64,000 bases of DNA, taken from Bacteroidales bacterium. GTDB taxonomy: Bacteria; Bacteroidota; Bacteroidia; Bacteroidales; UBA12077. Position 1 is the stretch's first letter. Each line of letters opens with the position of its first letter. This document shows positions 3,513 to 58,779 of this stretch, in pieces. A model generated the notes under the pieces. That model had not been told where the DNA came from and searched no databases. It saw only the letters and a list, made by a program, of their open reading frames with translations. Made by a program: the position numbers and the translations under genes. The stretch lies in contig JAZBOG010000003.1 of NCBI GenBank assembly GCA_036351015.1, positions 257,102-321,101 of the forward strand, in the 5' to 3' direction.

Positions 3513-6500
3513 TTATTGAAAAATTACTTTTTCCTGGTAGGAGGATCCTTCGGTACTCACCCGGACAAAGTATATTCCTTTGGCATAATCAGATAAATCC
3601 AGTTTCTTCTTCAATTTACCCCTGGTTTCGATCACCTCGTGATATACCCGTTGACCGGAAATATTAAGGATTTCGAGGGCATATTTCTTTTGCTGTTCAA
3701 TGGCTATCTCCACGGTAATGTGGTTGGATGTGGGGTTCGGGTAGATGCGGATATTTCCGGCAACATTTAAAAACTCAACAGATGTGGAAGAGCCCACAGT
3801 CAGGTTGGTTGTAACCGGTCCGCAGCTGTTATCGTCGGTAATTTCGAGGAGATAATCGTCGGGACTCAGGTTTTCAAATATTCCGGTTTCATTCACCACA
3901 TCCCCGGGTGTTAAGGTATAGGATAATGTTCCGGTACCGCCTGCAGCTTCAACAGTGATCGAACCGTCGGAGGCGGATTCGGACGAAGCATCGGTCACAT
4001 TCTCGGACACAATGGTAATGGCAGCGGGTTCCTCAACGTCAACCGAAAGGTTGGCTTCACAGCCATGATCATCTACCACGATCAGATCGTATGTTCCTGC
4101 GCCCACAGATCCCTGGTCTTCAACATCCGCTACCTGTCCTGATCCGTCGGAGGTAGTCCATGCATAGATATACGGAAGGGTACCCCCGGTTGCCGTAACA
4201 TTTATCGTTCCATCCTCGGCCCCATTGCAAAGGGCATCGGTAACTTCTGTAAGTTCAACCGCAAGGGGTGCAGCGGGTTCGGTAATTACCACACTATCCT
4301 CGTACATACAGTTGTGGGCATCGGTAGCAGTAAAAGAGTAGGTTCCGGGAGTTAATCCCGATTGATCTTTCTGGGTTGGAACCAGTCCCGACCCGTTATC
4401 GGTAGTCCAGAAATAGCTGAAAGTCGGCGTACCGCCGGATACGGCAAGTTGTACGGCACCATCATTCCCACCATTACATGATACATTATATACGGTTTTA
4501 TTCACCTGGATTGCCGGGGGTTGGGTAAGGTTCACACTCGATGATTTATGGCAACCGTTGGCATCGGTAACCGTAACGGTATAAAATCCTGCATCCAGAC
4601 CGTCGGCAATTTGAGTACTCTGACTTCCCGGGTCGTTCCACAGGTAGCTATAAGGTTCAGTTCCACCGCTGCGGAGTACCGTAAGCTCACCGTCGTAATC
4701 GCCATGGCAGGTAGGACTATTCACCACTTCGGCAGTGGCCAGCACTTCGGTAGGCTGGGTAATCTCATAGCCGGTAACGGTAAACTCACATTCGTTGGCG
4801 TCAGTTACTGTAATGCTGTAAGTGCCGATGCCCACATTGGTCAGGTCCTGAGTGGTAGCCCCGGTATTCCAGCTGTAGCTGTAGGGCATCTCCCCGGCAG
4901 TGGTAATATGCACATCGATATACCCATCGGTATCGCCGTAGCAGTCGAGCAGGCTGGTTGACGAGGGAGTGATCTCCCCGGCAAAGGTATAACCCAGCTC
5001 GCCGATGGTAACATTAACCACATCCACCAGGTCGGGTTCGGCTTCCACATCGGTAACCGTAACAGAGTAGGTTTGTCCGGAAGCCAGGTTGATGGCTTCG
5101 GCGGTGGTTTGACCACCGGCATTGGCATCCCACTGGTAGGTGATATCGGTGTGTCCGTCCACTGAAAAATAGCTTACGGTAGCTTTCCCGTTGGTGGTTC
5201 CCGGACAGGCATCTTTGGAGTGGGAAATATAGGCATAGAATGTGGTCTGATCCAGCACATTGAAGGTGGTATCGAACACGCATCCATTGTTGTCGGTAGC
5301 GGTCACCGAGTAGCTTCCCGGGTCGAGATCTGCAATATCTTCGGTTTCTGCAGTAAAGCCCGAGGGTCCTTCCCAGCTGAAGGTAACCGTTCCGGTTCCT
5401 CCCTGGTACACCAGGTCGATGGCTCCCAGGTCAGCTGGGCCGGTATAGTGGGTTACCACGGATTCCCCGAAGGTAACGGGCTTAGGCCCGGTAAGGATTA
5501 TAGCCGTATCGGCAGTACATCCTTCGGCATCGGTAACGGTAACACAATAGGTTCCGGCAGTCAGGCCGGTTTGGTCTTCGGAGGTCAGGCTAACGCCCGA
5601 TCCGCCTTCGCTTTCGAACCAGTAATAGGTATTTCCTCCATTGCCGCCGGTAACGCTGATGTCTATTTCGCCTTCGCCGCTATAACTACAGGTGGTAACA
5701 TGCGTTACCGAGGGGTTAAAAAGGAAAGAATCCGGTTCGGCCAGGGTATGTAGTGCAATGGCGGAAGAGTCGAGGGCATCAGTTACGGTCACCGAGTAGG
5801 TTCCGGCAGATAATCCGGTAGCGGTTGAATCATTTAAGCCAGGATCGTGGTTCCAGGCGTAGGTATAGGGCGAAACGCCAAAGTAGGGGGTAACCACCAG
5901 CTCGCCGTCGGTACTTCCATAGCAGGTGGGGTTGGTTTTTTTGGTGAAGGTGGCATTTAACTCGGGGATAAACTGGGCCAGAATTCCATTATAAGTTCCG
6001 GTTGAATTAAAAAGTGTTCCCTCTCCGATTTGTAAACTTGCTGATCTATAAGCTCCGCCAAAAGTATTTATTCCATCTGAAGAAATTTCCAGAATATCTC
6101 CTTGATCAACTCCTCCTTCACCATATAAACTTGAAGCAAACAAAGTATTGCCTAAATTATCCAGACCTGCAACATAAATATCTAAATCTGATGAAGAACT
6201 TGAATTAATCGTATCGTCACCAAAAACCAATTCATCTGAAAAATATCCTGAAATATATAACTTATTTCTACGGGAAAGGATTACTTTGGCTACATCATTT
6301 CCAATACCTCCATAACCACGAGACCACAATAAATTCCCGTTTTTGTTATATTTATGGATAAAAATATCATTGGATCCACTGGTGCTTAAAATGACATTAC
6401 TGGTCAATGTTTCCGTGGAATCCGCATAAAATTCCGTGCCACTAAAATATCCGGTAAAATAAATATTCCCATAATCATCCTGTGTAATTGTGCCTGTATA

Positions 6501-7346
6501 ATCATTGTTATTCCCATAGGATTGCCTCACCCACAACCCATTCCCATCAAAATCAGTTTTGTATAAATAAACATCAGATTTATTGGTAATATAACTGGAT
6601 ATTGTTTTTACATCTAAATATAAATCCCCAAGAAAAATACCATTAAAATAATATCCGTCGTTAAAAGCGCTTATCGATGTTAATTTTCCAGTACCTGAAG
6701 AATTAAGAATATTGTCAACCCAAAGGTAATTTCCATCATCATCTAATTTAAAAATATAATTATTTGTTCCTGTTCCTCTTAAGGTATCGTCAGAATAAAT
6801 AAGAGAATCGACATAATCACCTACCAGTATAATATTGTTTGATTTATCTATATCAATTCCGTTAATATATTGTGTAGATTCACCCCAAGCTATTTTTTTG
6901 GACCATAGAAAACTTCCATTAATGTTATATTTTGCCAAAAACACATCATAAGAACCGGCATCACTTATTAAAGAATCTTGATTTTCGTTGAAATAACAGG
7001 TATCCTGGAAAATTCCGGTTACAAAAATATTGTGATATTGATCTAGTTTCAGATCAATATATAAAAGTTCATTTCCTTTACCCCCAATGGTTTTAATCCA
7101 AACAGGTTGTAGGTCACTAGAAATTTTAGCAATGAAGAAATCAAAACCTCCATTAGAGTTTATAGTATCACCAATGCTATTTTGAAAATGCCCGGCAATA
7201 TAGATATTATCATTCTCATCAATATCATTGGAAAGAATTCTCACATTTCCGGATGAATTAACTTCAAGATAATCTTTCCAAGTTTGTGCAGATGTAATTG
7301 CTGTAATAAAAACAAAAAAATTCAATAAAAATATTAGTTTTTTCAT
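3513..7346 (-). CDS. large T9SS-secreted surface protein: signal peptide, beta-propeller-like N-terminal half, nine SprB-type repeats and a type A C-terminal sorting domain
   Basis: The signal peptide is MKKLIFLLNFFVFITAITSAQ. The N-terminal ~465 aa carry recurring YI.G.F....F / D.F..K motifs (SBBP/propeller-like). There are nine repeats of the pattern C.G..DG.I.....GG..PY.Y.W......T....L.AGTY.VTVTD..GC. The C-terminus IYPNPTSNHITVEI...GIYFVRV...KVIFQ matches a Por/T9SS sorting domain. Confidence 0.85.
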   Translation of the reverse strand: MKKLIFLLNFFVFITAITSAQTWKDYLEVNSSGNVRILSNDIDENDNIYIAGHFQNSIGDTINSNGGFDFFIAKISSDLQPVWIKTIGGKGNELLYIDLKLDQYHNIFVTGIFQDTCYFNENQDSLISDAGSYDVFLAKYNINGSFLWSKKIAWGESTQYINGIDIDKSNNIILVGDYVDSLIYSDDTLRGTGTNNYIFKLDDDGNYLWVDNILNSSGTGKLTSISAFNDGYYFNGIFLGDLYLDVKTISSYITNKSDVYLYKTDFDGNGLWVRQSYGNNNDYTGTITQDDYGNIYFTGYFSGTEFYADSTETLTSNVILSTSGSNDIFIHKYNKNGNLLWSRGYGGIGNDVAKVILSRRNKLYISGYFSDELVFGDDTINSSSSSDLDIYVAGLDNLGNTLFASSLYGEGGVDQGDILEISSDGINTFGGAYRSASLQIGEGTLFNSTGTYNGILAQFIPELNATFTKKTNPTCYGSTDGELVVTPYFGVSPYTYAWNHDPGLNDSTATGLSAGTYSVTVTDALDSSAIALHTLAEPDSFLFNPSVTHVTTCSYSGEGEIDISVTGGNGGNTYYWFESEGGSGVSLTSEDQTGLTAGTYCVTVTDAEGCTADTAIILTGPKPVTFGESVVTHYTGPADLGAIDLVYQGGTGTVTFSWEGPSGFTAETEDIADLDPGSYSVTATDNNGCVFDTTFNVLDQTTFYAYISHSKDACPGTTNGKATVSYFSVDGHTDITYQWDANAGGQTTAEAINLASGQTYSVTVTDVEAEPDLVDVVNVTIGELGYTFAGEITPSSTSLLDCYGDTDGYIDVHITTAGEMPYSYSWNTGATTQDLTNVGIGTYSITVTDANECEFTVTGYEITQPTEVLATAEVVNSPTCHGDYDGELTVLRSGGTEPYSYLWNDPGSQSTQIADGLDAGFYTVTVTDANGCHKSSSVNLTQPPAIQVNKTVYNVSCNGGNDGAVQLAVSGGTPTFSYFWTTDNGSGLVPTQKDQSGLTPGTYSFTATDAHNCMYEDSVVITEPAAPLAVELTEVTDALCNGAEDGTINVTATGGTLPYIYAWTTSDGSGQVADVEDQGSVGAGTYDLIVVDDHGCEANLSVDVEEPAAITIVSENVTDASSESASDGSITVEAAGGTGTLSYTLTPGDVVNETGIFENLSPDDYLLEITDDNSCGPVTTNLTVGSSTSVEFLNVAGNIRIYPNPTSNHITVEIAIEQQKKYALEILNISGQRVYHEVIETRGKLKKKLDLSDYAKGIYFVRVSTEGSSYQEKVIFQ
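3780..5933 (-). repeat. array of nine tandem SprB-type coding repeats (~75-80 aa each) inside the T9SS cargo gene
   Basis: The repeat ends recur as SVTVTDALDSS, CVTVTDAEGC, SVTATDNNGC, SVTVTDVEAEP, SITVTDANEC, TVTVTDANGC, SFTATDAHNC, DLIVVDDHGC and LLEITDDNSC. The repeats are diverged at the DNA level. Confidence 0.7.
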
Positions 7347-7357
7347 GAAGTTCTTTT

Positions 7358-7513
7358 TTAACTCTCATAAATATAATCTTCAGTAGGATCAAGACCATTC
7401 CCTCCTTCTGTTTTCATTTTATCCAGGGAAAAAAGTTTTGGCATTTCCCAGGTTAACTTCGTATTATGTAGAGGTGTGTTTTTCTCTTCCAGTGTTCTCT
7501 CTTTCTCGTCCAT
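7358..7513 (-). CDS. candidate lasso-peptide precursor (51 aa): MDEKERTLEEKNTPLHNTKLTWEMPKLFSLDKMKTE|GGNGLDPTEDYIYES
   Basis: This is the first ATG of the 64-aa ORF; the TTG at 7552 overlaps a promoter box. It lies downstream of B1/B2 on the same strand. The leader has WEMPKL (a YxxPxL-type recognition motif) and Thr at -2 before Gly1. The core has Glu9 as a possible macrolactam acceptor and ends in Ser. Confidence 0.45.
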   Translation of the reverse strand: MDEKERTLEEKNTPLHNTKLTWEMPKLFSLDKMKTEGGNGLDPTEDYIYES

Positions 7514-7549
7514 ATCTTCACATTTTAACTTTTCACAACAAAAATGGTG

Positions 7550-7557
7550 CAAATATA
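7550..7557 (-). promoter_or_regulatory. Bacteroidota sigma-A -7 box (TAnnTTTG) upstream of the precursor ORF
   Basis: The minus strand reads TATATTTG about 37 nt upstream of the ATG at 7513. I saw no clean -33 TTTG element. Confidence 0.3.
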
Positions 7558-7674
7558 CACTTTGTGCCTTAAATTATATATTTTAGAGTAAATTTATTGC
7601 TTTTTTATCTGAAAACCCAAATTTTCGTTAAATTATTGATTAAACGACAGTTTGGATTGATAAAAATCTTGTTG

Positions 7675-8112
7675 TCAGCTATAAAAACCAACTACCGTAA
7701 ATTCTTTGTGCCCCTTTTCTCCAGCCACTACTTTGCCTCCGGCTTTGAGCCAGGCGTGGGCTTTTAAGCCCTCACCCTCTCCTTTCTTCACCCCCAGGTA
7801 CAAGGTACTGCCCAGGCCATAAACTTTTAACACTTTTTTTACCGCGATGGCCTCTTCAAAGCATTTTACCTTCCACGGCAACCGCCGTTTCATCCGCCGC
7901 AGGGCATGCTGTGCTCTGCCAATCAACTCCTCCTGCCCTTCCTTCAAAACATCCTTATTCTCATTCCGAAAAGCCCCTAACCGGTGCGAAAACCATCGCA
8001 AGGGCAACCACCTTACCCATACAAACGACACCACCAGCCAGTAAAAGGTTTGCCAAAGCAACCGTTTTTCCTGCCGCGGGGCGTTTAAATATTTACTAAA
8101 CAAATGAAACAT
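7675..8112 (-). CDS. lasso peptide biosynthesis B2 protein (transglutaminase-core leader peptidase)
   Basis: The 145-aa size fits. The Cys is in KVKCFEEAIAVKKVL and the His in GLKAHAWLKAGGKVVAGE, which is the typical B2 / Transglut_core3 signature. The gene is adjacent to a PqqD-like gene. Confidence 0.8.
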   Translation of the reverse strand: MFHLFSKYLNAPRQEKRLLWQTFYWLVVSFVWVRWLPLRWFSHRLGAFRNENKDVLKEGQEELIGRAQHALRRMKRRLPWKVKCFEEAIAVKKVLKVYGLGSTLYLGVKKGEGEGLKAHAWLKAGGKVVAGEKGHKEFTVVGFYS

Positions 8113-8156
8113 GAAAAAGTTCTTTTCTTAAGTCATCGGATGACTAATAAACATGA

Positions 8157-8435
8157 TTAGGTTGTAACAATTAGCTTTTTTTCTGCCAGATCGTTTAAAA
8201 AAGGGAGTATATCCTGCAGACACTTTTCCCGGCTTACTTCATATTTTTCGGTAATTAAATCAGCCAGGTCTTTTATCGTAATTGGTTTCTCGATGTTATC
8301 CCAAATAAAACTGCCGGTTTTTCCCAGTCCGTAATATTCGCCTTGCTGGATGCTCATCATTACTTTTTCGCCGTCGATATCGCTGGCCAGGATATCGTTG
8401 TTTCGCTGGATGATGTTATTTTCTGTTAGTTTCAT
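8157..8435 (-). CDS. PqqD-family RiPP recognition element (lasso B1)
   Basis: The 92-aa protein carries DGEKVMMSIQQGEYYGLGKTGSFIWDNIEKPITIKDL...EKCLQDILPFLNDLAEKKLI, the classic PqqD pattern. Confidence 0.85.
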   Translation of the reverse strand: MKLTENNIIQRNNDILASDIDGEKVMMSIQQGEYYGLGKTGSFIWDNIEKPITIKDLADLITEKYEVSREKCLQDILPFLNDLAEKKLIVTT

Positions 8436-8601
8436 TGATACTAGTTCGTTTATTTTATTCTCATTTTTTCTCGCAGCGACTCGTCCCGCTAGTCCCGAAA
8501 GCTATTGGGACACAAAGTCTTTTGCAAAGCATCGCAGAAAAACTGCTTCCTGTTGCCTGCCTCCGGCAGGTAAACTGGTTACTGCCGCTAATAATTTTAA
8601 T

Positions 8602-9468
8602 TTAAAAAACAATTTCATCTTTCTCATCCAAATATCCGAATTTTTTCATCACCCCGCGGTGGTTGCTGAGAATTTTGTTCACCTGCTTTTCGCTTAAATG
8701 ATTCCTCCAGTCGCCTACCTTCCCCTTCCGGAAGAACTGTTTCGATTTGATCATCTTCTCCTTAAACCCGCTCTTTTTCTCCTGTTGGGTAAGGATGTGA
8801 AAATCGCTTTTTTGCAGGGCATCCACAATTTTATCGAGGGAAGCTCCGAGGCCTAAAAACTTCACTGCCTGCGAAAAGGTGGTTAACGGGTCGCTGAGCA
8901 TATCCTCGTAACGCATCACATGGACAGGGATTAACGATTGCTCCGTCCAGCTATTCACATGGTCCGACCAGCTGCCCAGCAGCTGTCGAAGCTGGTTTAC
9001 CTGCCGGTCGTTGCGGTCGCAAAAGGCATAGCCTGGGTCGCTGATAATTTTCACCATCTTCTCCACGGGTTTTGCACTGTGGTAAGCAAAAGATACCAGC
9101 ACATCCAGGGGGTTTCGCATAAAATAGACGCACCCCCTCGAAATTTCGGGCGGGAACAGGGGCTGATCCGGCTCAACGAAATAAAAACGGTCGTGTACCT
9201 TTTTAAACAACAGCTCTTCCGACTCTTCCGACTGCATCCTGTAAACATCAGGCCTCAGGCGGTCAATCTCCTCAAAAGTCATATCGGCAGAAGAGAGGCC
9301 GGTATACTCGTCGAAAATCCTGCGTGAGCTGGAGATGGAGGTCTCCTTCAGATCATTGATACTTGCCGGCTGGTCCGAGTCGCCCAACAGGTTGGTAATA
9401 AAGATCCGGAACCAGGTATTCCCTGATTTGGGGTAACTGGCCAGCCATATGACATTTTTTTCAGGCAT
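8602..9468 (-). CDS. PAPS-dependent sulfotransferase (Sulfotransfer_1-like)
   Basis: The 5'-PSB loop is SYPKSGNTW and the 3'-PB motif is FRKGKVGDWRNHLS. I chose the ATG at 9466-9468 (MPEKNVIWLASYPKSGNTW). It lies 2 nt after the kinase stop at 9461-9463, whereas the longer listed ORF would overlap the kinase by 50 nt. Confidence 0.85.
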   Translation of the reverse strand: MPEKNVIWLASYPKSGNTWFRIFITNLLGDSDQPASINDLKETSISSSRRIFDEYTGLSSADMTFEEIDRLRPDVYRMQSEESEELLFKKVHDRFYFVEPDQPLFPPEISRGCVYFMRNPLDVLVSFAYHSAKPVEKMVKIISDPGYAFCDRNDRQVNQLRQLLGSWSDHVNSWTEQSLIPVHVMRYEDMLSDPLTTFSQAVKFLGLGASLDKIVDALQKSDFHILTQQEKKSGFKEKMIKSKQFFRKGKVGDWRNHLSEKQVNKILSNHRGVMKKFGYLDEKDEIVF

Positions 9469-10357
9469 CGAGGGCAAAGTTTTGGCGTAAAAAAATGGCA
9501 AACTCTTCAAGCATCAACGGCGCCTGGGGTCGTTTCACCCGGTAAACCTTCACCTGTTTTAACAGCTGACTGATTCCCCGGAAATGCTCCTGCTGTTTTT
9601 GCAGTCCCTCCACAAACCGGTAGCGGAAGGTGCTGTTTTTCAAAGCGTTAAATTTCTCTACCCCGGTCAGCTCTTCATACTCAAAACCCGGGGTGTTTTT
9701 GGGCTGGATGATAAAGATATTGTTTACCGGCAAAGGCTCAGTACAAAAATTTTCGTCGATGGTATATTTATATTTCTGGATATCGGGACGGATGGCTGAT
9801 AAGGTGTCGGCAGCAATTCCCAGTTTCCCGAGGACATCCTTCCATATTTTCATGTTGGGAAACCCGGGTTCTACCTGCAGGGAAGCATTGATCACGCTGA
9901 TATCATCGGCAAGGATCTGGTATCCTTGCCGGACAAACCAGGCGGCTATGGAGGATTTTCCTACCCCGCTCAAGCCGGTAAACACCGACACCGCCGGTCC
10001 AAACCTGATGGCACTGCCATGGATGGGCAATAATCCCCGCTGAATAAACAGTGCTCCAAAAGCCGATCCAAGCAAAAACAGGCGTACCTCCCTGTCGACC
10101 CTGGATTTGAAGGGTTCCACAACAATCTCTTTTCCGTTTTTAACATAAAACCGGGCAATCCCGTCGGTCTCCAGCAGAAACTCATCCTTTCCGGCCTGGT
10201 AGCGAACTCCTTTTTGGATGATCCGGTTAAGCTGTCCGGGTGTTTTTCCGATCCTTACCTCAACATCCGGCTTTTCTGCTGATGCCAACAGCTCAGGGAT
10301 CTCAAAATCGGAAATAAAATGCAACCCAAAGGCTTTATAATGATACTTTTTATTCAT
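9461..10357 (-). CDS. HPr-kinase-related serine kinase (lasso-peptide tailoring kinase type)
   Basis: The sequence LPIHGSAIRFGPAVSVFTGLSGVGKSSIAAWFVRQGYQILADDISVI matches the HprK C-terminal P-loop domain. The size of 298 aa and the position next to B1/B2 match paeninodin-type kinases. Confidence 0.75.
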   Translation of the reverse strand: MNKKYHYKAFGLHFISDFEIPELLASAEKPDVEVRIGKTPGQLNRIIQKGVRYQAGKDEFLLETDGIARFYVKNGKEIVVEPFKSRVDREVRLFLLGSAFGALFIQRGLLPIHGSAIRFGPAVSVFTGLSGVGKSSIAAWFVRQGYQILADDISVINASLQVEPGFPNMKIWKDVLGKLGIAADTLSAIRPDIQKYKYTIDENFCTEPLPVNNIFIIQPKNTPGFEYEELTGVEKFNALKNSTFRYRFVEGLQKQQEHFRGISQLLKQVKVYRVKRPQAPLMLEEFAIFLRQNFALDA

Positions 10358-10374
10358 AGTTAGTGGTTGTCCTA

Positions 10375-10382
10375 CAAAGGTA
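10375..10382 (-). promoter_or_regulatory. possible -7 box (TACCTTTG) for the kinase-sulfotransferase operon
   Basis: The minus strand matches TAnnTTTG 18-25 nt upstream of the kinase ATG at 10357. I saw no convincing -33 element. Confidence 0.25.
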
Positions 10383-10730
10383 AAGGAAATTTTGTTGAAT
10401 TTGGATCATTTAAGAGCATCTTACCTAAAAATCTATGCAAAAAAACCCGAAGACTTTATTGCTTTATGCTGACGATAAATGACCGTATGAAGCAATCGGT
10501 TTAGACAAATGATTAGGAGAATGTTTCGTTTCCCGAGAGCTCCCAATAACCGCATTCCTTTCAAAAGATTCACCAAGGTACTTCAGGTTAAAGCAATCAG
10601 TAGTGAACAAAATCTCAGGGTATGCTGTAGTATTAAAGATTAAAGAAACGATAAAAGAAAATCCGGTAAAAAATTTACCGCTTAAAAATTAATCTTTATA
10701 TTTAACTTGAACTATAAAAACCACAAAGCC

Positions 10731-11348
10731 ATGGATCTTAAGCAAACGATTGAAAAACGAGCAAGCATAAGAACCTTTACCGACGAGAAGGTTCCGGTGA
10801 ATGATTTAAAGGAGCTGGTACGAAGGGCCGGTTTAGCACCCAGTGTTAACAACTTCCAGCCCTGGAAGTTTTATGCCATCACCAACCAGAATATTCTAAA
10901 TAAACTGGCTTTGAAGGTGTCGGAAAAAATCAAACAACTACCGGCCAATCAATCGATTGCCTCGAAAAATGTAAAGTCACAGGTGGAGTGGTTTGCCACC
11001 TTTTTTGAAAATGCACCGGCAGTGATCGCCATGGCCATGGAGGATTACGAGTCGGTTTTAGAAAAAGGAGTCAATTTAACCCACGAGGAGATTAATAAGT
11101 TACGTAACTTCCCGGATATGCAAAGTGCAGGGGCAGCCATCCAGAACATCCTGCTTTCGGCAGTGGATTTAGGCTATGGGGCCTGTTGGCTAAGTGCTCC
11201 CATGATGGCCAAGTAGGAGCTGGAGAAGATTCTCCACATCGAAAGCCCTTTTCATCTTATTGCCTTTGTGGCTGTAGGAAAAGCATCCAAAGACATGCAG
11301 CCCAAACCGAAGAAATCATTGGACGAAATATTTACGCTTGTTGAATAA
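10731..11348 (+). pseudogene. nitroreductase-family gene interrupted by a single in-frame TAG at 11214-11216
   Basis: The N-terminal part (MDLKQTIEKRASIRTF...PSVNNFQPWKFY...GYGACWLSAPMMAK) stops at the TAG. The same frame then continues for 43 codons (ELEKILHIESPFHLIAFVAVGKASKDMQPKPKKSLDEIFTLVE) to the TAA at 11346-11348. That continuation is the expected nitroreductase C-terminus. Confidence 0.6.
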
Positions 11349-18209: not shown

Positions 18210-19349
18210 TTATTTTATCGATAAATTAAATCTTTGATCAGGAGATGAATAAAATTCTTCTAAAGAATTAGTGTATATAAAATGATCGAGCTTATATTTG
18301 ATTTGAAATACTTTAGGATTTTTTGCGCCAACAGGAACCAGCATTAAAGATCTTTTTCCTTCAACTAAAGAGGGATTTGAATATGCTCCTTCCCTATTAT
18401 CAAAATTTACATCAAAATAATATAAATAAGGATAAATCCATTCAACATATCTTCTTTTGGAGGCATTTGAATAAGACAATATGTTTAAATCATTATAATT
18501 TTCTGTGATAGCTTTTTGAAACTCTACAGCATTAAGCGGTGTATTATGGAGTACAGGCATGGTGTTCCATTGTCCATCGAGAAAAGCCCACTTGCCGATA
18601 TCCTCCAGATACACTTCAACAACAACATGTCCGGCTCCGTAACGCCTGGTTTCAACATCCCGGGTTTTTAGCCCCATTATTCTTGCTTTCATTCCAACGG
18701 CATTAAGACATGCTGAAGCAACAATTCCATATTCAACACACCTGAAATTTTTACCTTGCTTTGCGTCGTCTAAAATTGATATTGCATCTGGTTTTTCGGG
18801 GACGTTGTTTCCGTTATGTTTCCATTGATGATGAACCCAGTTCAAAATAGCCAGGGCTTTCTCTTTATCCGACTTCAAGTTTCGCACTAAATCTTCGACA
18901 GGGTATTTTGTACGCAGTAATTTTAAATATTCACTATCTCTATTATTATCATACCAAAATTGTACTTCATTATTTAACACAGTATCAAATTGGAGATTAA
19001 CATATGCCGGAGTCACTCCTTTTACTACCGTTTGAGCAACGGCTGTGTCATTAAGTGCTATATAAAACTTATGCGACTGCCCTGGCGTTATTTTAAAAGC
19101 AATACTGTCGATATCTGTAAAGAAAACAAACTCTTCACCTCGATCAAGAAAACATGAAATAAACAAACTATCTGATTCAATTTGGGGAGTAATATTCCAT
19201 GCATTAATATACCAGTCATCACCTACTCTATAGTTTACTTGCACATTATTTGCTTGTATCATAGGAAATCCGTCATATTCCTGATTCGCTTTTCCTTCGT
19301 TCAAAGAGAGCATAAGAATAGCTGTGAAAAAATTTATTACATTTTTCAT
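18210..19349 (-). CDS. secreted transglutaminase-like cysteine protease-fold protein
   Basis: The protein has a signal peptide. The core has Cys in FRCVEYGIVASACLNAVG, His in GAGHVVVEVY and Asp in WAFLDGQ. Confidence 0.6.
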   Translation of the reverse strand: MKNVINFFTAILMLSLNEGKANQEYDGFPMIQANNVQVNYRVGDDWYINAWNITPQIESDSLFISCFLDRGEEFVFFTDIDSIAFKITPGQSHKFYIALNDTAVAQTVVKGVTPAYVNLQFDTVLNNEVQFWYDNNRDSEYLKLLRTKYPVEDLVRNLKSDKEKALAILNWVHHQWKHNGNNVPEKPDAISILDDAKQGKNFRCVEYGIVASACLNAVGMKARIMGLKTRDVETRRYGAGHVVVEVYLEDIGKWAFLDGQWNTMPVLHNTPLNAVEFQKAITENYNDLNILSYSNASKRRYVEWIYPYLYYFDVNFDNREGAYSNPSLVEGKRSLMLVPVGAKNPKVFQIKYKLDHFIYTNSLEEFYSSPDQRFNLSIK

Positions 19350-54076: not shown

Positions 54077-54138
54077 GAAAATATTACCTTTGAATCAGGA
54101 GGGGAAAAAACAATATCCCCCTTTTAAATTATTCGTTT

Positions 54139-56025
54139 ATGCAATCCTATTTCGGTAAAATAAACCTGAACAATAACAGTGTAAACCAGGAAGATGTTGT
54201 TGGTGCTCTTAAAGAACTATCCCCCGGAAAGAACCTTAATCAATCGATGATTTGCAATCACCATTATGGACTGGGAGCCATTGAAATTTTCCCTGCCAAA
54301 CACCGCAACACCAAGCATTCTCCTTTCAAATCAGGAGCTTACATAATTTTAGAGGATTGCAGGATCGACAACCGCGAAACATTGATCCGTAAACTTAATC
54401 TTGATTCTAAAAGCATCACCGACCCCGAATTGATTCTGCAATGCTTTCAGCGATGGAAAGCAGACTGTCCAAAATACTTAACCGGCGATTTCTCTTTTGC
54501 GATATGGAACACAGAAACCCATGAACTATTTTGTGCCAGAGACCACTTTGGCGTAAAACCATTGAATTATTACCTGGATGATCATCAATTTATTTTTTCA
54601 ACAGAGATTCGGGGTATTTTAAGCCAGCAAAATTTAGACTTAACCATCGACCAGCAATTTATTGCCGACACCCTCTCCATTATAAAGTCTGATCATTCCA
54701 GGTCAACGTACCAGGGAATAAGAAAACTTCCCCCGGCACATTCCCTTCACCTAAAAAATAAGGAACTTACTCTCAGGAGATACTGGGAGTTAAAACCTGC
54801 ATACACTTCATGCAAGGACGAAGAGGAGTATATCCGCCGGTTTAAAGAATTACTCAACCAGGCTGTTCAACGCAGGCTGGAAGATCCGGTAAACTATGGC
54901 GCCGAGTTAAGCGGGGGTATTGACTCTTCAAGCATCGCCTCTTTGGCCTCCCGTCGGGTAACCCTAAAAACCTTTTCACACGTCATGCCCGATGAAATGA
55001 TCGGGAAAGTGCATCCGTTTAACGATGAGAAAAAATATATCCGTTTACTTAACGATTTCTGCAATATCAACCAACGATTTTTAATCACTTCTGAAAATTC
55101 GGGCATCATCCAGGCTCTGGAAAACAGCCTACTCCTCAACCAGGGGATTGTACAACAGAACTTTAGTGTGTTTTCTGACCAGCTCTACCAGGAAGCCGAA
55201 AATCAGAACGTGCAGGTATTGCTTTCGGGCTTTGGAGGAGATGAAGTGGTAACCTCAAAGGCAGGCAACTATTTAAGAGAGATCCTTAAGGAGCGGGAGT
55301 TTAAAACCGACCTTAAAGCACAAGGCCTCCCAACAATTGCCATTCACCTTACCAAATTTAAATACTGGTTAAAAAACAATTTTCCCCAGGCAACAAACCT
55401 TCTCCTGGCTTTAATAAAAGGGAAAAAATGGTGGGCCAGAAAATATAAAAATCTGGCCATTCAGAAGTCATTCAACCGACAATTTAATATTAAGCAACGT
55501 TATATTAATTATTATCAATCCATCCGAAGAGACAACCTGACAGAACAATCCACCGAAAGAATAACGCATCCGCATGTAGCACAGCGACTGGAATACAGCT
55601 CACTTGCGGCAAAACACCACGGGATCGAATATCGCTATCCACTCCTAGATAAAGATTTAATTGAATTTTATCTTTCGATGCCTCAACGACTGAAAGCAAA
55701 AAACGGAGTCTTACGGTACACTATCCGCCAGGCAATGGATGGTTACCTCCCCGAAGAGATCCAGTGGAGGGATGATAAAAGCGGAGCTACGATACCTACT
55801 GTTTTTATGCGGACCTTGATCGATAAAAATAAAATTTTCAGGATCATGGAACGGGCGAAATCCAACCCGGCTATTACCCGGTACATTGATATGCATAAGT
55901 ATCAACAATGGAGTACCCGCTTTTTTCAACGATCAGCAAAAAATAAATTTATCAATCCGGGAGCATTTTTTAATTACCTTAAACTGATTTTATTTATTGA
56001 AAATAATCCTTCCTTATTTAAATGA
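54139..56025 (+). CDS. asparagine-synthetase-like lasso peptide cyclase (macrolactam synthetase, C protein)
   Basis: The PP-loop is AELSGGIDSSSIASLA. The AsnB-like N-terminal domain (RDHFGVKPLYY-type: RDHFGVKPLNYY) begins MQSYFG without the catalytic Cys2 of true glutamine-dependent AsnB. The length is 628 aa. A PF14907-like nucleotidyltransferase follows with a 4-nt overlap. Confidence 0.75.
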   Translation: MQSYFGKINLNNNSVNQEDVVGALKELSPGKNLNQSMICNHHYGLGAIEIFPAKHRNTKHSPFKSGAYIILEDCRIDNRETLIRKLNLDSKSITDPELILQCFQRWKADCPKYLTGDFSFAIWNTETHELFCARDHFGVKPLNYYLDDHQFIFSTEIRGILSQQNLDLTIDQQFIADTLSIIKSDHSRSTYQGIRKLPPAHSLHLKNKELTLRRYWELKPAYTSCKDEEEYIRRFKELLNQAVQRRLEDPVNYGAELSGGIDSSSIASLASRRVTLKTFSHVMPDEMIGKVHPFNDEKKYIRLLNDFCNINQRFLITSENSGIIQALENSLLLNQGIVQQNFSVFSDQLYQEAENQNVQVLLSGFGGDEVVTSKAGNYLREILKEREFKTDLKAQGLPTIAIHLTKFKYWLKNNFPQATNLLLALIKGKKWWARKYKNLAIQKSFNRQFNIKQRYINYYQSIRRDNLTEQSTERITHPHVAQRLEYSSLAAKHHGIEYRYPLLDKDLIEFYLSMPQRLKAKNGVLRYTIRQAMDGYLPEEIQWRDDKSGATIPTVFMRTLIDKNKIFRIMERAKSNPAITRYIDMHKYQQWSTRFFQRSAKNKFINPGAFFNYLKLILFIENNPSLFK

Positions 56026-57188
56026 CAAGCAAAGCGCAACATATCATTTCCCAATATCCGGTGGAGTTACAATTGATTCTTTTATTTTCGCAGGATCATT
56101 TGTCGGGTGAAGCCATTGAAAAAATTAAGCGACTCGAAAAACAGGCAGACTGGACCTTATTTTTTGCCCTGGCCAAAAAACACCGGTTAATTTCTCATAT
56201 TACAAGATCTGCATATTTATTAAAACCGGAAATTAAAAAGCAAGTTAATACAACCCATAAAGCCCTATCTAAAAAGGCTTTGCTATATAGCAAACATTTA
56301 ATTAGCATCCACCAGATCTTAAAAAAAGAGCATATTCCCCACACCTTTTTCAAAGGGCCTTTATTATCCTTATCTCTATACCACGACATTGGTTTCAGGG
56401 ATTATAGAGACCTGGACATTTTAGTTCCTCTCTCCCGGATCGAAGTTGCCAAACGACGGATTCAGGAGCAAGGTTTTGTAATGCATGCTCCATCCTTGGA
56501 GCTGACTCCAAAGCAACGAAAAATTAATTATTCAATCAGTCATCATTACCATCTCAGAAACCCTGATGACTCCACAGAAATAGAACTGCACTGGAACTTA
56601 ACCAATCCCAGAACCTACCTTCCTCTGCCAACAGAAAAGCTCATAGCTGAGTCAGAGAATATTGAGATCGCTCAGAACAGGTTACCCTATCTTTCGAAGG
56701 AGGCAAACCTTGTTTTTTTGGCAGCCCATGGTGCTATTCATCAATGGTATCGCCTTTTCTGGCTAAAGGATTTTTCAGAAATGCTCCGGCAAAGTAGAAC
56801 CGAAGAAATTGAACAGGCATACACCCTGGCAGAAAAGCTGAAACTGGAAAAAACTTTTGCCCAGGGCTGTAGGTTATCCAATATACTTTATAACAATACT
56901 GTTCCGGATTGCATCAACCGCAAAAATAATACAGTCTTTTTAACACACTGCGCACTCAGGGCTATAGCCGATAAAGACTTAAGGCAGCAAGGCATCCCGG
57001 GTAAAATAAAATTTCTGGGATACCGGTTACATCTTAAACCTGATCGTCATTATTTCTTCAGTTTACTTTTCAGATTACGCACTCATTATTCTGACTGGGA
57101 AGTACTTCCATTACCCAACTCCTTGTTTTTTCTTTACTATTGGCTCCGTCCATTGATCCTGTTCTACAAATTTTTACGTAAAAAATAA
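56022..57188 (+). CDS. nucleotidyltransferase-fold protein (uncharacterised NTP_transf_5 type, lasso-cluster associated)
   Basis: The protein is 388 aa and contains FFKGPLLSLSLYHDIGFRDYRDLDILV (the G..RxxxDLDILV nucleotidyltransferase motif) and IELHWNL. It is translationally coupled to the cyclase (ATGA overlap). Confidence 0.65.
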   Translation: MTSKAQHIISQYPVELQLILLFSQDHLSGEAIEKIKRLEKQADWTLFFALAKKHRLISHITRSAYLLKPEIKKQVNTTHKALSKKALLYSKHLISIHQILKKEHIPHTFFKGPLLSLSLYHDIGFRDYRDLDILVPLSRIEVAKRRIQEQGFVMHAPSLELTPKQRKINYSISHHYHLRNPDDSTEIELHWNLTNPRTYLPLPTEKLIAESENIEIAQNRLPYLSKEANLVFLAAHGAIHQWYRLFWLKDFSEMLRQSRTEEIEQAYTLAEKLKLEKTFAQGCRLSNILYNNTVPDCINRKNNTVFLTHCALRAIADKDLRQQGIPGKIKFLGYRLHLKPDRHYFFSLLFRLRTHYSDWEVLPLPNSLFFLYYWLRPLILFYKFLRKK

Positions 57189-57304
57189 TCACCAACCATA
57201 GAAATAACTACAGGCTTTTGTTTATTTATTCGCCAAAAAAATTGGCGGTTGTCATAAATTTTGTGTTATTTTATTTTTTGAAAAGGAACACCAACCTTTT
57301 GCCT

Positions 57305-58399
57305 ATGGATATCAATACAACTTTCTGGTTTTTTGAGAGAATCAAAGAAGATAATTTATGTATGCTGTATAGTGGCAATTTCAGCGATGAAATTACCAAT
57401 AAGCTTATTGAGCTTAGCGAATACAACATCAATAATATCGATTCTCTTTCAAAAATGAAGAAAAAAGCATCGTTCTTGATGGCAGAGTGCTTTCAGAACA
57501 TTGTACGGCATGGGGAAAAAATAACCGAAGAACACAATGATGGTTTTTTTCTTACCAAAAACTGGGGTGGTGTGTATTACATTACATCTGGCAACCTGAT
57601 CGAAAAAAACAAAATCAAGAACCTGGAGAGCCAGCTAAAGACAGTTAACAGTCTTACCAAAGAAGAGCTGAAGATTTTATACCGTGAAGTATTGGAAAAT
57701 AACGAGATCTCCGATAAAGGAGGAGCCGGGTTAGGTTTGATTGAGATGGCCCGAAAATCGGGTCAAAAACTCGATTACCTGTTCGAAAACAAGAATAATA
57801 AATTCTTCTATTTCTACAATCAAATCATGCTTAAATCGGATATGGACGAATTCAATACGATGGTTAGCGATTTTCCCCTGACAGATTCTATCAGCTATCA
57901 CAAAAAAATGGTTAACGAAGATGTGATGCTCATCCATAAAGGTGATTTTTCACAGGATTCAATTTTTCCCGTGTTAAAAATTATTGAAGAAAACCTGCGA
58001 AAAGAATTTAAGGACTCTACCCAAAAAAAGAAGATTTTTCATATCCTGGTAGAGCTTTTACAAAACATTAGCAAACATTGTTTTAAGATAAATCACAAGA
58101 AGGAGGGTATTTTTTTAATTGGAAACAGTAATTCAAACTTTGTAATCAATACAGGAAACCTGATAGAGAATAAAAGCATTGAGAAATTCACAAAACTACT
58201 CGACGAAATTAACAGCTTAAACCGAAAAGAACTTAAAAATCTATACCTGAGCAAGCTCAGAGACCGGAACCTGCCAAGCAACGGAGGAGCAGGAATTGGT
58301 CTGATTGATATTGCTCGGAGAATAATTTCTCCATTAAATTATTCTTTTCACCGGCTGGATGATGAAAAATCATTTTTTACCATTAATGTAATTGCTTAA
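57305..58399 (+). CDS. SiaB-like (GHKL/anti-sigma-kinase fold) protein with the domain duplicated in tandem
   Basis: The two halves share LMAECFQNIVRHG / LVELLQNISKHC, GNLIEKNKI / GNLIENKSI, NSLTKEELKILY / NSLNRKELKNLY and GGAGLGLIEMARKSG / GGAGIGLIDIARR. The ATG at 57305 is preferred over the listed TTG. Confidence 0.6.
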   Translation: MDINTTFWFFERIKEDNLCMLYSGNFSDEITNKLIELSEYNINNIDSLSKMKKKASFLMAECFQNIVRHGEKITEEHNDGFFLTKNWGGVYYITSGNLIEKNKIKNLESQLKTVNSLTKEELKILYREVLENNEISDKGGAGLGLIEMARKSGQKLDYLFENKNNKFFYFYNQIMLKSDMDEFNTMVSDFPLTDSISYHKKMVNEDVMLIHKGDFSQDSIFPVLKIIEENLRKEFKDSTQKKKIFHILVELLQNISKHCFKINHKKEGIFLIGNSNSNFVINTGNLIENKSIEKFTKLLDEINSLNRKELKNLYLSKLRDRNLPSNGGAGIGLIDIARRIISPLNYSFHRLDDEKSFFTINVIA

Positions 58400-58401
58400 T
58401 T

Positions 58402-58779
58402 ATGCTTCAGACTTTTGAATCAGCAGAAACCCGGGATAAACCGTATATTATTTTTGATCCCCTAAATAACCACTTCGAGATCAGGGGGAACTCATTACCC
58501 GAAGATACTACCTTATTTTACCAACCGGTTATTGAATGGATTATAGAATATGCAAAAGATCCAAACCAGGTAACTCACCTGGTATGCAGTCTCGATTATT
58601 TTAATTCTTCATCGGCTAAAATGCTTTATGAACTGTTTATCGAGCTGGAAAAAATTAAAGATACCGGTAAAGAGGTAAAGGTAACCTGGGGTTATGATCC
58701 GGATGATCATTTAATTGAAGAAAAAGGGTTGGAATTTAAATCCATCCTTGAAATACCTTTCGAAGTACTGGAAAAATAA
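58402..58779 (+). CDS. DUF1987 (SiaC-like) protein
   Basis: The 125-aa protein contains FEIRGNSLPEDTTLFYQPVIEWI and LDYFNSSSAKMLYELF, the DUF1987 signature. Its start lies 2 nt after the SiaB-like stop. Confidence 0.65.
   Translation: MLQTFESAETRDKPYIIFDPLNNHFEIRGNSLPEDTTLFYQPVIEWIIEYAKDPNQVTHLVCSLDYFNSSSAKMLYELFIELEKIKDTGKEVKVTWGYDPDDHLIEEKGLEFKSILEIPFEVLEK

Follow-up and report, generated by a model that had tools for sequence, protein, structure and literature searches.

A split and probably functional lasso-peptide gene cluster with a kinase and a sulfotransferase in an uncultured Bacteroidales genome

Introduction

In the pseudomycoidin cluster of Bacillus pseudomycoides, psmCAKB1B2ND, the terminal Ser of the precursor is phosphorylated and then hexosylated; PsmN is required to place the hexose on the phospho-Ser, and PsmN D134A/D136A is inactive (PMC6993621). 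For paeninodin (Paenibacillus dendritiformis) and for the proteobacterial ThcoK and SyanK, the kinase likewise places a phosphate on the C-terminal Ser while the precursor is linear, and the remaining sequence has little influence on this (review PMC8498205). Both PadeK and PsmK act on this residue of the linear precursor (PMC8498205, PMC6993621).

The co-occurrence of a kinase, a sulfotransferase and a nucleotidyltransferase in lasso clusters has already been noted. The genome-mining passages of Letzel 2014 (PMC4289311) and of Zhu 2016 (via PMC8498205) describe HPr kinases together with putative sulfotransferases, and sometimes with a nucleotidyltransferase; the clusters described in those passages belong to Firmicutes and further anaerobes, and their sulfotransferase gene comes first. 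A sulfotransferase coupled to a lasso kinase has been known from genomes since 2014–2016. An earlier note on the DNA studied here held that no lasso-peptide sulfotransferase had been characterised experimentally, and the literature searched agrees, yielding bioinformatic mentions only and no report of the effect of the sulfotransferase on lasso peptides.

Here we analyse a locus within a stretch of 64,000 nucleotides (the window) from an uncultured Bacteroidales genome. We conclude, with a probability of roughly 0.8, that it is one half of a split lasso-peptide cluster, which is functional and kinase-tailored in the manner of paeninodin and pseudomycoidin. The cluster is known here from its genes alone, and no product has been observed.

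Results

Organisation of the locus

The earlier note described five minus-strand genes as a lasso-peptide tailoring and maturation locus. All five ORFs are present with the identities claimed, the 51-aa ORF at 7358–7513 being the precursor, and they are followed by a gene for a large surface protein. In order of transcription, the features are:

9461..10357, minus strand: HPr-kinase-like lasso-peptide kinase, 298 aa, containing FTGLSGVGKSS
8602..9468, minus strand: PAPS-dependent sulfotransferase, 288 aa, containing PKSGNTW and FFRKGKVGDWRNH
8157..8435, minus strand: lasso B1, PqqD-type RiPP recognition element, 92 aa (NF033536, PF05402)
7675..8112, minus strand: lasso B2 leader peptidase, transglutaminase-like Cys protease, 145 aa, containing KCFEEA...AHAWL
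7403..7513, minus strand: precursor leader MDEKERTLEEKNTPLHNTKLTWEMPKLFSLDKMKTEG, with the boundary favoured by conserved residues in orthologues
7361..7402, minus strand: predicted core peptide GNGLDPTEDYIYES, 14 residues, with the stop codon at 7358–7360
3513..7346, minus strand: SprB-repeat, T9SS-sorted surface protein, 1277 aa (PF13573 SprB repeats, PF18962 Por_Secre_tail)

The assignment to lasso-peptide maturation is supported by B1 and B2, which profile searches place in the lasso families and which both pass the curated lasso models. B1 scores 101.4 bits against NF033536 (lasso_PqqD_Bac; cutoff 80) and 67.9 bits (1e-18) against PF05402. B2 scores 85.3 bits against NF033537 (cutoff 33) and 79 bits (3e-22) against PF13471, and its C84 and H119 are conserved in at least 95% of 33 homologues.

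The kinase had been expected to match PF07475. As a single sequence it falls below the Pfam cutoff (22.4 bits against 33.3), but a profile of 28 homologues matches HPrK/P structures (2qmh at E=9e-11) and 25 of the 28 match PF07475, which makes it a member of the HPrK-like kinases of kinase-tailored lasso clusters. H113, G133-K134-S135 and D151-D152 are invariant. Homologues are found in more than 40 metagenomic lasso loci. The D151-D152 pair corresponds to the metal site D158/D159 of PsmK (compared by description), which was mutated in PMC6993621.

The kinase and sulfotransferase genes had been thought to be 2 nt apart. Read from the sequence, they overlap by 8 nt (ATGCCTGA): the sulfotransferase ATG (9468–9466) lies upstream of the kinase stop (9463–9461), and the minus strand reads ...cgATGccTGAaaa.... 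The spacing is thus to be corrected, while translational coupling of the two genes is plausible with the overlap.

A relocated cyclase and nucleotidyltransferase

The 3-kb locus indeed contains no cyclase, as had been pointed out, but the window does hold one, 43.8 kb from the other cluster genes:

54139..56025, plus strand: lasso cyclase, Asn-synthetase-like macrolactam synthetase, 628 aa (PF00733)
56022..57188, plus strand: PsmN-type nucleotidyltransferase, NTP_transf_5 (here NTP5), 388 aa, overlapping the cyclase stop by 4 nt

The cyclase matches PF00733 with 152 bits (3e-44). Its best NCBIfam match, and the sole NCBIfam lasso-cyclase model matched, is NF033535, at 374 bits and below the model cutoff of 525. 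It starts MQSYFG and so has no Cys2 glutaminase nucleophile. NTP5 scores 154.8 bits (4e-45) against PF14907, the family to which we take PsmN to belong, and its K111-G112, D130 and D132 are conserved in 22 homologues. Polysaccharide-synthesis genes are abundant between the two halves of the cluster.

Comparison of related loci shows where the cyclase normally lies. Orthologues with 47–51% identity are divergent beside the kinase in L005 and L007–L013, and the cyclase/NTP5 pair directly adjoins the kinase in L005, L007–L014, L016, L019, L021, L102, L103 and L106. The pair is divergent and directly upstream of the kinase in at least 12 more-distant Bacteroidales relatives, and still more distant cyclase homologues have flanking B1 and B2 genes in dozens of loci. 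Orthologous loci had been suggested as a check for an unrelated, non-RiPP neighbour pathway; the genes adjoin a lasso cyclase instead. In the loci compared, NTP5 is always paired with a cyclase; one such pair, in L022, belongs to a glycosyltransferase-cyclase-NTP5 module, and B1, B2 and kinase are all missing up to 8 kb away. Two further genomes (L003, L004) share the split: their cyclase and NTP5 are found on separate contigs, in the shared context MFS-cyclase-NTP5-DUF6272-SiaC. Judged by gene order in these relatives, the absent cyclase is a lineage-specific relocation in the clade of the window.

Selection and promoters

Within the split clade, dN/dS is 0.03–0.2 for all six enzymes, from which it follows that selection acts on the split cluster. 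Five split-clade genomes carry every ORF intact, at 70–90% amino-acid identity. Three predicted -7 boxes of the Bacteroidetes type (TAnnTTTG) may serve as promoters:

7550..7557, minus strand: predicted -7 box TATATTTG, upstream of the precursor
10375..10382, minus strand: predicted -7 box TACCTTTG, with its end 18 nt before the kinase ATG
54085..54092, plus strand: predicted -7 box TACCTTTG, upstream of the relocated cyclase

Along the minus strand of 7300–10750 the TAnnTTTG pattern occurs just twice, once in the box upstream of the precursor; the sequence around this box is conserved in the upstream ORF translations of relatives. Of the 15 sequences compared for the kinase, 13 have a box equally far from its start, and L014 and L016 have one farther upstream. 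The cyclase is preceded by a box in all 11 sequences compared, with an identical TACCTTTG in the split-clade loci L098 and L099.

The precursor

The precursor-like gene is present in a single copy in the 64-kb window, and against NCBIfam it matched no family, including any paeninodin-type precursor model. A 64-aa version starting at TTG finds no support, since L003 has a stop codon just upstream of the conserved Met. Among 17 orthologous precursors the leader is conserved, with W22, P25, L30 and T35 invariant, and the cores are hypervariable. Within the core, G38 is invariant and a Glu is found at core position 8 or 9 in 17/17 (E45 here), a pattern that recurs in the cores of L071 and L051. 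These are features expected of lasso cores, namely a small first residue and an Asp or Glu at positions 7–9. The predicted macrolactam would join Gly1 to Glu8, or alternatively Gly1 to Asp9. The C-terminal Ser is present in all 17 orthologues and also in L044, L051 and L071, and this residue, Ser14 of the core, is the predicted target of the kinase.

A 14-residue core with a tail of 5–6 residues would be as short as the shortest known lasso peptides, or shorter. Thr35 is invariant but lies at position -3 from the invariant Gly, as against the canonical -2; to place it at -2 would require a 10-membered ring in 4 of 14 orthologues. Some exceptions to the Thr-2 rule are on record in PMC10368454.

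The sulfotransferase

As had been anticipated, the sulfotransferase matches PF00685 (101 bits, 8e-29). Motifs P13-K-S-G-N-T-W19, K90-x-H92, R118-N-x-L-D-V-x-x-S126 and F245-F246...G249 (FFxxG) are invariant in 15 homologues. The hallmarks of PF00685 are present, these being the 5'-phosphosulfate loop (PKxGxTW), the 3'-phosphate motifs (RNPxDxxVS, RKGxxGDW) and the catalytic His, and by these motifs the protein keeps all the elements of PAPS binding and catalysis.

Among solved structures, the glycopeptide sulfotransferases Teg12, Teg14 and StaL come nearest (best E=1e-14; range 1e-14 to 6e-9); they share the PF00685 fold family, the N-terminal W-[IL]-A-S-Y-P-K-[AS]-G-N-T-W loop and O-sulfation of a peptide natural product, although their substrates are non-ribosomal glycopeptide aglycones and the similarity covers only parts of the protein. 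A tyrosine-sulfated bacterial RiPP is known from the RaxST/RaxX system of Xanthomonas, where the PAPS enzyme is encoded beside the peptide gene; RaxST is TPST-like rather than PF00685-like, and RaxX is not a lasso. The order kinase-then-sulfotransferase is found again in the distant lasso clusters L051, L052, L071 and L093, in most cases with stop and start codons that overlap; the genomic surroundings of these clusters differ, and none has a SprB gene.

The cores compared offer no identifiable conserved acceptor other than the C-terminal Ser. In 5 of about 20 sulfotransferase-bearing clusters (L005, L014, L016, L051, L071) the core has no Tyr, so Tyr cannot be the universal acceptor. Nor can a sugar, because L051 has the sulfotransferase and no NTP5 within 8 kb.

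Neighbouring genes

The SprB-repeat gene starts 11 nt past the precursor stop, with no terminator-like site between, and is probably co-transcribed with the precursor. It follows the precursor in every lasso-bearing locus among the related loci compared, and in the empty-site genome L105 both it and the lasso genes are missing. Insertions are found within the clusters of some relatives: IS200-like elements in L005, L006 and L010, a DDE transposase in L023 and a KilA-N gene in L106.

No ABC exporter (PF00664-type) was found beside either half of the cluster or among the large ORFs of the window, nor was one found in any related locus examined. The absence of an exporter, which the earlier note had considered unusual, is therefore real but not special to this locus: the whole family is without one, including the unsplit ancestral arrangement.

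Discussion

Comparison with described systems

The cluster shares with pseudomycoidin an HPrK-like kinase, split B1 and B2, a cyclase, an NTP-transferase with DxD and a precursor ending in Ser (PMC6993621). Compared by description with PsmK and PsmN, D151-D152 of the kinase and D130/D132 of NTP5 are conserved here. There are several differences. The psm cluster has the ABC exporter PsmD and no sulfotransferase, and the cluster described here is the opposite on both counts. The psm cluster is from Bacillota, contiguous and co-linear, whereas ours is split; the ancestral unsplit form also differs in being divergent, NTP5 and cyclase sharing one strand and the opposite strand carrying kinase, sulfotransferase, B1, B2 and precursor. 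The ring is Ala1-Asp in psm, as against the Gly1-Glu8/9 predicted here. In the paeninodin, ThcoK and SyanK clusters there is neither a sulfotransferase nor a nucleotidyltransferase, both of which are present here, although the invariant C-terminal Ser fits the rule for their kinases. From the earlier sulfotransferase-bearing clusters, as described in the sources cited above, the present family differs in being from Bacteroidales, in the coupling of sulfotransferase to kinase, in having no exporter and, here, in the split layout.

Proposed pathway and alternatives

We propose that the B1 recognition element would bind the 51-aa precursor via the conserved leader (W-E-x-P-K-L-x-x-L-D-K-x-K-T-E-G), and that the kinase would phosphorylate the invariant C-terminal Ser while the precursor is still linear. 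B2 would cut off the leader, the favoured site being before Gly38, and the distant cyclase would link Gly1 to Glu8, or to Asp9, giving the 14-residue lasso. The PsmN-like nucleotidyltransferase, coupled to the cyclase, may decorate the phospho-Ser by analogy with the hexosylation of pseudomycoidin, and the sulfotransferase, coupled to the kinase, may add an O-sulfate. Candidate acceptors are a hydroxyl of the short tail (Tyr10 or Tyr12, which here have acidic flanks, or a Ser or Thr) or the appended sugar. The comparisons above establish the gene identities and their orthology, the split and its conservation, purifying selection and the pattern of conserved residues in the precursor; we infer the order of the steps, the cleavage site and the ring residue and, above all, the site of sulfation and the chemistry of the nucleotidyltransferase.

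It could be argued that the five-gene locus is a decaying remnant, which has lost its cyclase and whose product is no longer made: there is no cyclase or exporter within it, and relatives carry the insertions listed above. However, the ORFs are intact in five split-clade genomes with low dN/dS, the cyclase-NTP5 pair is kept elsewhere and is also under purifying selection, the promoter boxes are conserved, and the precursor retains its leader, ring residues and C-terminal Ser while the core diversifies. This reading is largely refuted, and we give it almost no weight. The physical separation of the halves, each with its own promoter-like box, together with the ability of a cyclase-NTP5 pair to occur alone (as in L022), would also be compatible with the release of a linear phospho- or sulfo-peptide by kinase, sulfotransferase, B1 and B2 in the split clade, with the cyclase-NTP5 pair serving another purpose. 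Yet Gly38 and the acidic residue 8–9 positions on are invariant in the split-clade precursors (the window and L001–L004), a pattern that only continued selection for ring closure would predict; the window has just one precursor-like gene, and both halves are kept in the split-clade genomes, all of which leaves a linear product quite improbable.

The sulfotransferase might be merely co-located and act on another molecule, such as a glycan or the SprB-like surface protein encoded downstream, and both the lack of a conserved core acceptor besides the C-terminal Ser and the richness in polysaccharide-synthesis genes between the halves would fit this. We nevertheless consider it unlikely, given that the kinase-sulfotransferase order recurs in L051, L052, L071 and L093, in different contexts and without SprB, and that the closest solved relatives sulfate peptide natural products. 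Returning to the functional split cluster, its product may, as a tentative suggestion that is doubtful as a whole, be a lasso whose very short tail bears a phosphate, a PsmN-type adduct and an O-sulfate, and be functionally tied to the T9SS-secreted SprB-repeat protein.

Implications

A RiPP cluster can, on this evidence, stay under selection though split over 44 kb, and cluster-finding tools that depend on the cyclase being contiguous would overlook it or score it wrongly. The roughly 20 orthologous clusters form a clean comparative set for assigning the sulfotransferase: their cores are hypervariable, their invariant residues are defined and the masses of their products are predicted. Their stability gives lasso peptides their value as scaffolds, and any further tailoring enzyme extends what can be built on them. 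If the tentative suggestion above is true, this would be, to our knowledge, the first sulfated lasso peptide and the first lasso peptide characterised from Bacteroidota. That the link to a T9SS surface protein is conserved hints at a role in Bacteroidota other than that of an antibiotic. On the same suggestion, the peptide could, for instance, act on a cell-surface adhesin as its ligand or modulator instead of being exported as an antibiotic; if true, this would also explain the lack of an exporter.

The five-gene locus

All five open reading frames that the earlier note placed on the minus strand at 7358-10357 are present as it described them: an HPr-kinase-like kinase, a sulfotransferase, a lasso B1 protein, a B2 peptidase and a 51-residue precursor. 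By profile searches, 8157-8435 encodes a lasso B1 protein (NF033536, 101 bits, cutoff 80), 7675-8112 a lasso B2 protein (NF033537, 85 bits, cutoff 33) and 8602-9468 a member of PF00685 (sulfotransferase, 101 bits). The kinase assignment holds at the level of the family. Taken singly, the sequence is a weak match to PF07475 (22 bits against a cutoff of 33), but a profile of 28 homologues matches HPr kinase/phosphorylase structures (E=9e-11), and PF07475 is matched by 25 of the 28. Invariant in this profile are His113, the P-loop G133-K134-S135 and D151-D152, this last pair being the counterpart of PsmK D158/D159, a site that has been mutated (PMC6993621). The observation of a five-gene locus is confirmed, and its interpretation as a lasso maturation and tailoring locus is supported. 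One detail differs: kinase and sulfotransferase are not 2 nt apart. The minus strand here reads cgATGccTGAaaa, in which the sulfotransferase ATG precedes the kinase stop, and the genes therefore overlap by 8 nt.

Relocation of the cyclase

The cyclase is indeed missing from the 3-kb locus, but not from the window, where it forms a relocated half of the cluster together with a PsmN-type nucleotidyltransferase (NTP_transf_5, PF14907; here NTP5; PsmN is that of the pseudomycoidin cluster):

54139-56025, plus strand, Asn-synthetase-like cyclase, 628 aa, overlapping NTP5 by 4 nt
56022-57188, plus strand, NTP_transf_5 protein, 388 aa

True asparagine synthetases carry a Cys2 nucleophile; the cyclase begins MQSYFG, and is thus without it. 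Its best NCBIfam match is the lasso isopeptide cyclase model, at 374 bits, short of the 525-bit cutoff. Housekeeping and polysaccharide genes are found in the 44 kb that separate the halves. A second transglutaminase-core protein (PF01841, 379 aa) is also encoded there, at 18210-19349 on the minus strand; it falls outside the lasso B2 family.

A B2-based scan, using one genome per species, gave 13 Bacteroidota loci. In L005 and L007-L013 an orthologous cyclase-NTP5 pair (cyclase identity 47-51%) adjoins the kinase divergently. The pair occupies one strand and faces five genes on the opposite strand, running from kinase through sulfotransferase, B1 and B2 to the precursor. A TMEM260-like/polysaccharide-deacetylase pair and purD flank the whole. 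Further relatives share this unsplit layout (L014, L016, L019, L021, L102, L103 and L106). The comparative genomics that the earlier note proposed thus finds the kinase-sulfotransferase-B1-B2 block kept in unsplit Bacteroidales relatives, with a lasso cyclase adjoining. L001-L004, the four relatives closest to the window, differ from this layout, as does the window itself: where the cyclase pair would be, they have a nitroreductase-ArsC-fumarase block. In the genomes of L003 and L004 the pair is found on other contigs, surrounded as in the window (MFS-cyclase-NTP5-DUF6272-SiaC), which indicates that the split is old and shared. The missing cyclase is explained as the result of relocation.

In the split clade, the dN/dS values of the six enzymes (kinase, sulfotransferase, B1, B2, cyclase, NTP5) fall in the range 0.03-0.2. 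Comparisons of the window with its nearest relatives show saturated dS, and selection was therefore judged mostly from less diverged pairs. All six enzymes of the split cluster are maintained. A metagenome scan with the cyclase sequence alone gave no matches, and one with the cyclase alignment gave mostly distant lasso cyclases, with no close relatives of the window.

Several related loci carry mobile or selfish genes within the cluster: an IS200-like gene between sulfotransferase and B1 (L005, 9006-9554), a DDE transposase between kinase and cyclase (L023, 564-1724), a KilA-N gene between cyclase and NTP5 (L106, 1660-2436) and a HEPN/nucleotidyltransferase pair between B2 and precursor (L011, 10597-11300). 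The split in the window could have come about through insertions of this kind at the junction of kinase and cyclase. Sulfotransferase and B1 are separated in the window by a non-coding gap of 166 nt (8436-8601), in which no terminator-like site was found; the spacing is just 2-15 nt in several unsplit relatives, while others have the IS200-like gene there. The gap may be an excision scar.

One MAG of the split clade (L004, L099; JBKHIH01 contigs) is labelled Thiohalospira sp. Its contigs are plainly Bacteroidales-like, sharing the synteny of the window and being 70-90% identical to it, and the public record was probably binned or labelled wrongly.

The precursor and its predicted core

The precursor is present in single copy in the window, and has orthologues 3' of B2 in every related locus. 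Among 17 aligned precursors W22, P25, L30, T35, G38 and E45 are invariant, the residues between them are hypervariable, and the C-terminal residue is always Ser. Such an alignment is what one would expect of a RiPP whose leader is recognised while its core diversifies.

All 17 have an acidic residue at position 8 or 9 counted from the invariant Gly. Cleavage one residue earlier would give GGNGLDPTEDYIYES (computed cyclised M 1610.674) and place Thr at the canonical -2 position, but a 10-membered ring would then be needed in four orthologues. A start at Gly keeps the acidic residue at 8 or 9, which favours GNGLDPTEDYIYES (7361-7402) as the predicted core, in which a lactam would join Gly1 to Glu8 and Thr would occupy position -3. 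The computed monoisotopic masses for GNGLDPTEDYIYES are 1553.652 (cyclised M) and 1554.659 ([M+H]+), with adducts at 1633.619 (+HPO3), 1633.609 (+SO3, 9.5 mDa away) and 1795.671 (+HPO3 and hexose). Distant clusters having both kinase and sulfotransferase show the same design, with ...KTLG followed by GLNPFISEDPIFVS in L071, and ...NTSG followed by SGKPVFGGESGVTTGLS in L051.

Tailoring enzymes

In the sulfotransferase, as across the 15 homologues compared, the 5'-phosphosulfate loop, the catalytic His and both 3'-phosphate motifs are all intact. Among solved structures, those closest to it are Teg12, Teg14 and StaL, enzymes that transfer sulfate to glycopeptide antibiotics. Literature searches agree with the earlier statement that no lasso sulfotransferase has been characterised, and found no characterised sulfated lasso peptide.

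The order kinase then sulfotransferase is found again in the distant lasso clusters L051, L052, L071 and L093, in most cases with the stop codon of the first gene overlapping the start codon of the second. The kinases of these clusters are only 26-37% identical, and their genomic contexts are other than that of the window. This recurrence argues that the two enzymes would work on the same substrate.

Tyr10 and Tyr12 of the window core have acidic flanking residues. Tyr was rejected as a universal sulfation site because five of about 20 sulfotransferase-bearing cores have none. A sugar installed by NTP5 is weakened as a universal site by L051, which has a sulfotransferase and no nearby NTP5. 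The C-terminal Ser is the only universally conserved core hydroxyl, and is also the expected target of the kinase.

In NTP5, K111-G112 and D130/D132 are retained. PsmN adds hexose to phospho-Ser in E. coli (PMC6993621), and by this precedent NTP5 would add a group, hexose in the case of PsmN, to phospho-Ser. A literature search on PF14907 together with lasso peptides found no reports.

Promoters, export and neighbouring genes

Scans of the locus for sigma-70 promoters, intrinsic terminators and inverted repeats did no better than shuffled sequence. The Bacteroidetes-type -7 box (TAnnTTTG) was used in place of the sigma-70 scan, and is found upstream of kinase, precursor and cyclase, including:

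10375-10382, minus strand, kinase -7 box, TACCTTTG
54085-54092, plus strand, cyclase -7 box, TACCTTTG

The kinase box is at a conserved distance from the start in 13 of 15 sequences (further upstream in L014 and L016), and the cyclase box is upstream in all 11 compared. The two boxes are identical in the split clade. Unsplit relatives have two different boxes, with TAAATTTG the usual kinase form and TATCTTTG the usual cyclase form.

The absence of an exporter is borne out, a lasso-type ABC exporter being absent from every locus examined. The MFS gene upstream of the cyclase belongs to an LpxK-PNP-MFS housekeeping context and has no homologue in the examined loci of unsplit relatives, and is therefore not assigned to the cluster. 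Nor is a TerB-ABC2 transporter about 8 kb away: it represents another ABC type and is found on the far side of purD.

Directly 3' of cyclase-NTP5 is a DUF6272-SiaC pair (57218-58779, plus strand), as it is across the split clade (L098, L099). The unsplit genomes L102 and L103 have a DUF6272-SiaC-SpoIIE (PP2C) set about 7 kb past purD (~16.9-20.5 kb). L022 (11068-11436) has a GT9 glycosyltransferase, cyclase, NTP5 and SiaC; B1, B2 and kinase are all absent from the 8 kb around them. The DUF6272-SiaC position could reflect a regulatory link or coincidence.

Association with a surface protein

The precursor is followed by a gene for a surface protein:

3513-7346, minus strand, SprB-repeat protein with T9SS sorting domain, 1277 aa, starting 11 nt past the precursor stop

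No terminator-like site was found between the two, the scan being no better than shuffles. Each locus with lasso genes, the rearranged L106 (7166-9820) among them, has an SprB gene next after the precursor, and the product of this gene ranges from 884 to 2115 aa across genomes. In L105 (9369-11272), which has the same flanks, the deacetylase abuts purD and neither lasso genes nor SprB gene is present; both are also absent beside purD in three genomes of other lineages. This joint presence and absence suggests, though it does not prove, that lasso cluster and surface-protein gene belong together as a unit.

Comparison with known systems

Paeninodin and pseudomycoidin are characterised kinase-tailored lasso peptides. 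Putative sulfotransferases and nucleotidyltransferases have been noted in kinase-tailored clusters, with no function given for the sulfotransferase (PMC4289311, PMC8498205), and a paper on RiPP mining in Bacteroidales does not treat lasso clusters. What is new here is the Bacteroidales family with its divergent architecture, the conserved split of the cluster, the absence of an exporter, the predicted design of Thr-3, Gly1 and Glu8-9 with very short cores, and the apparent link to a T9SS protein.
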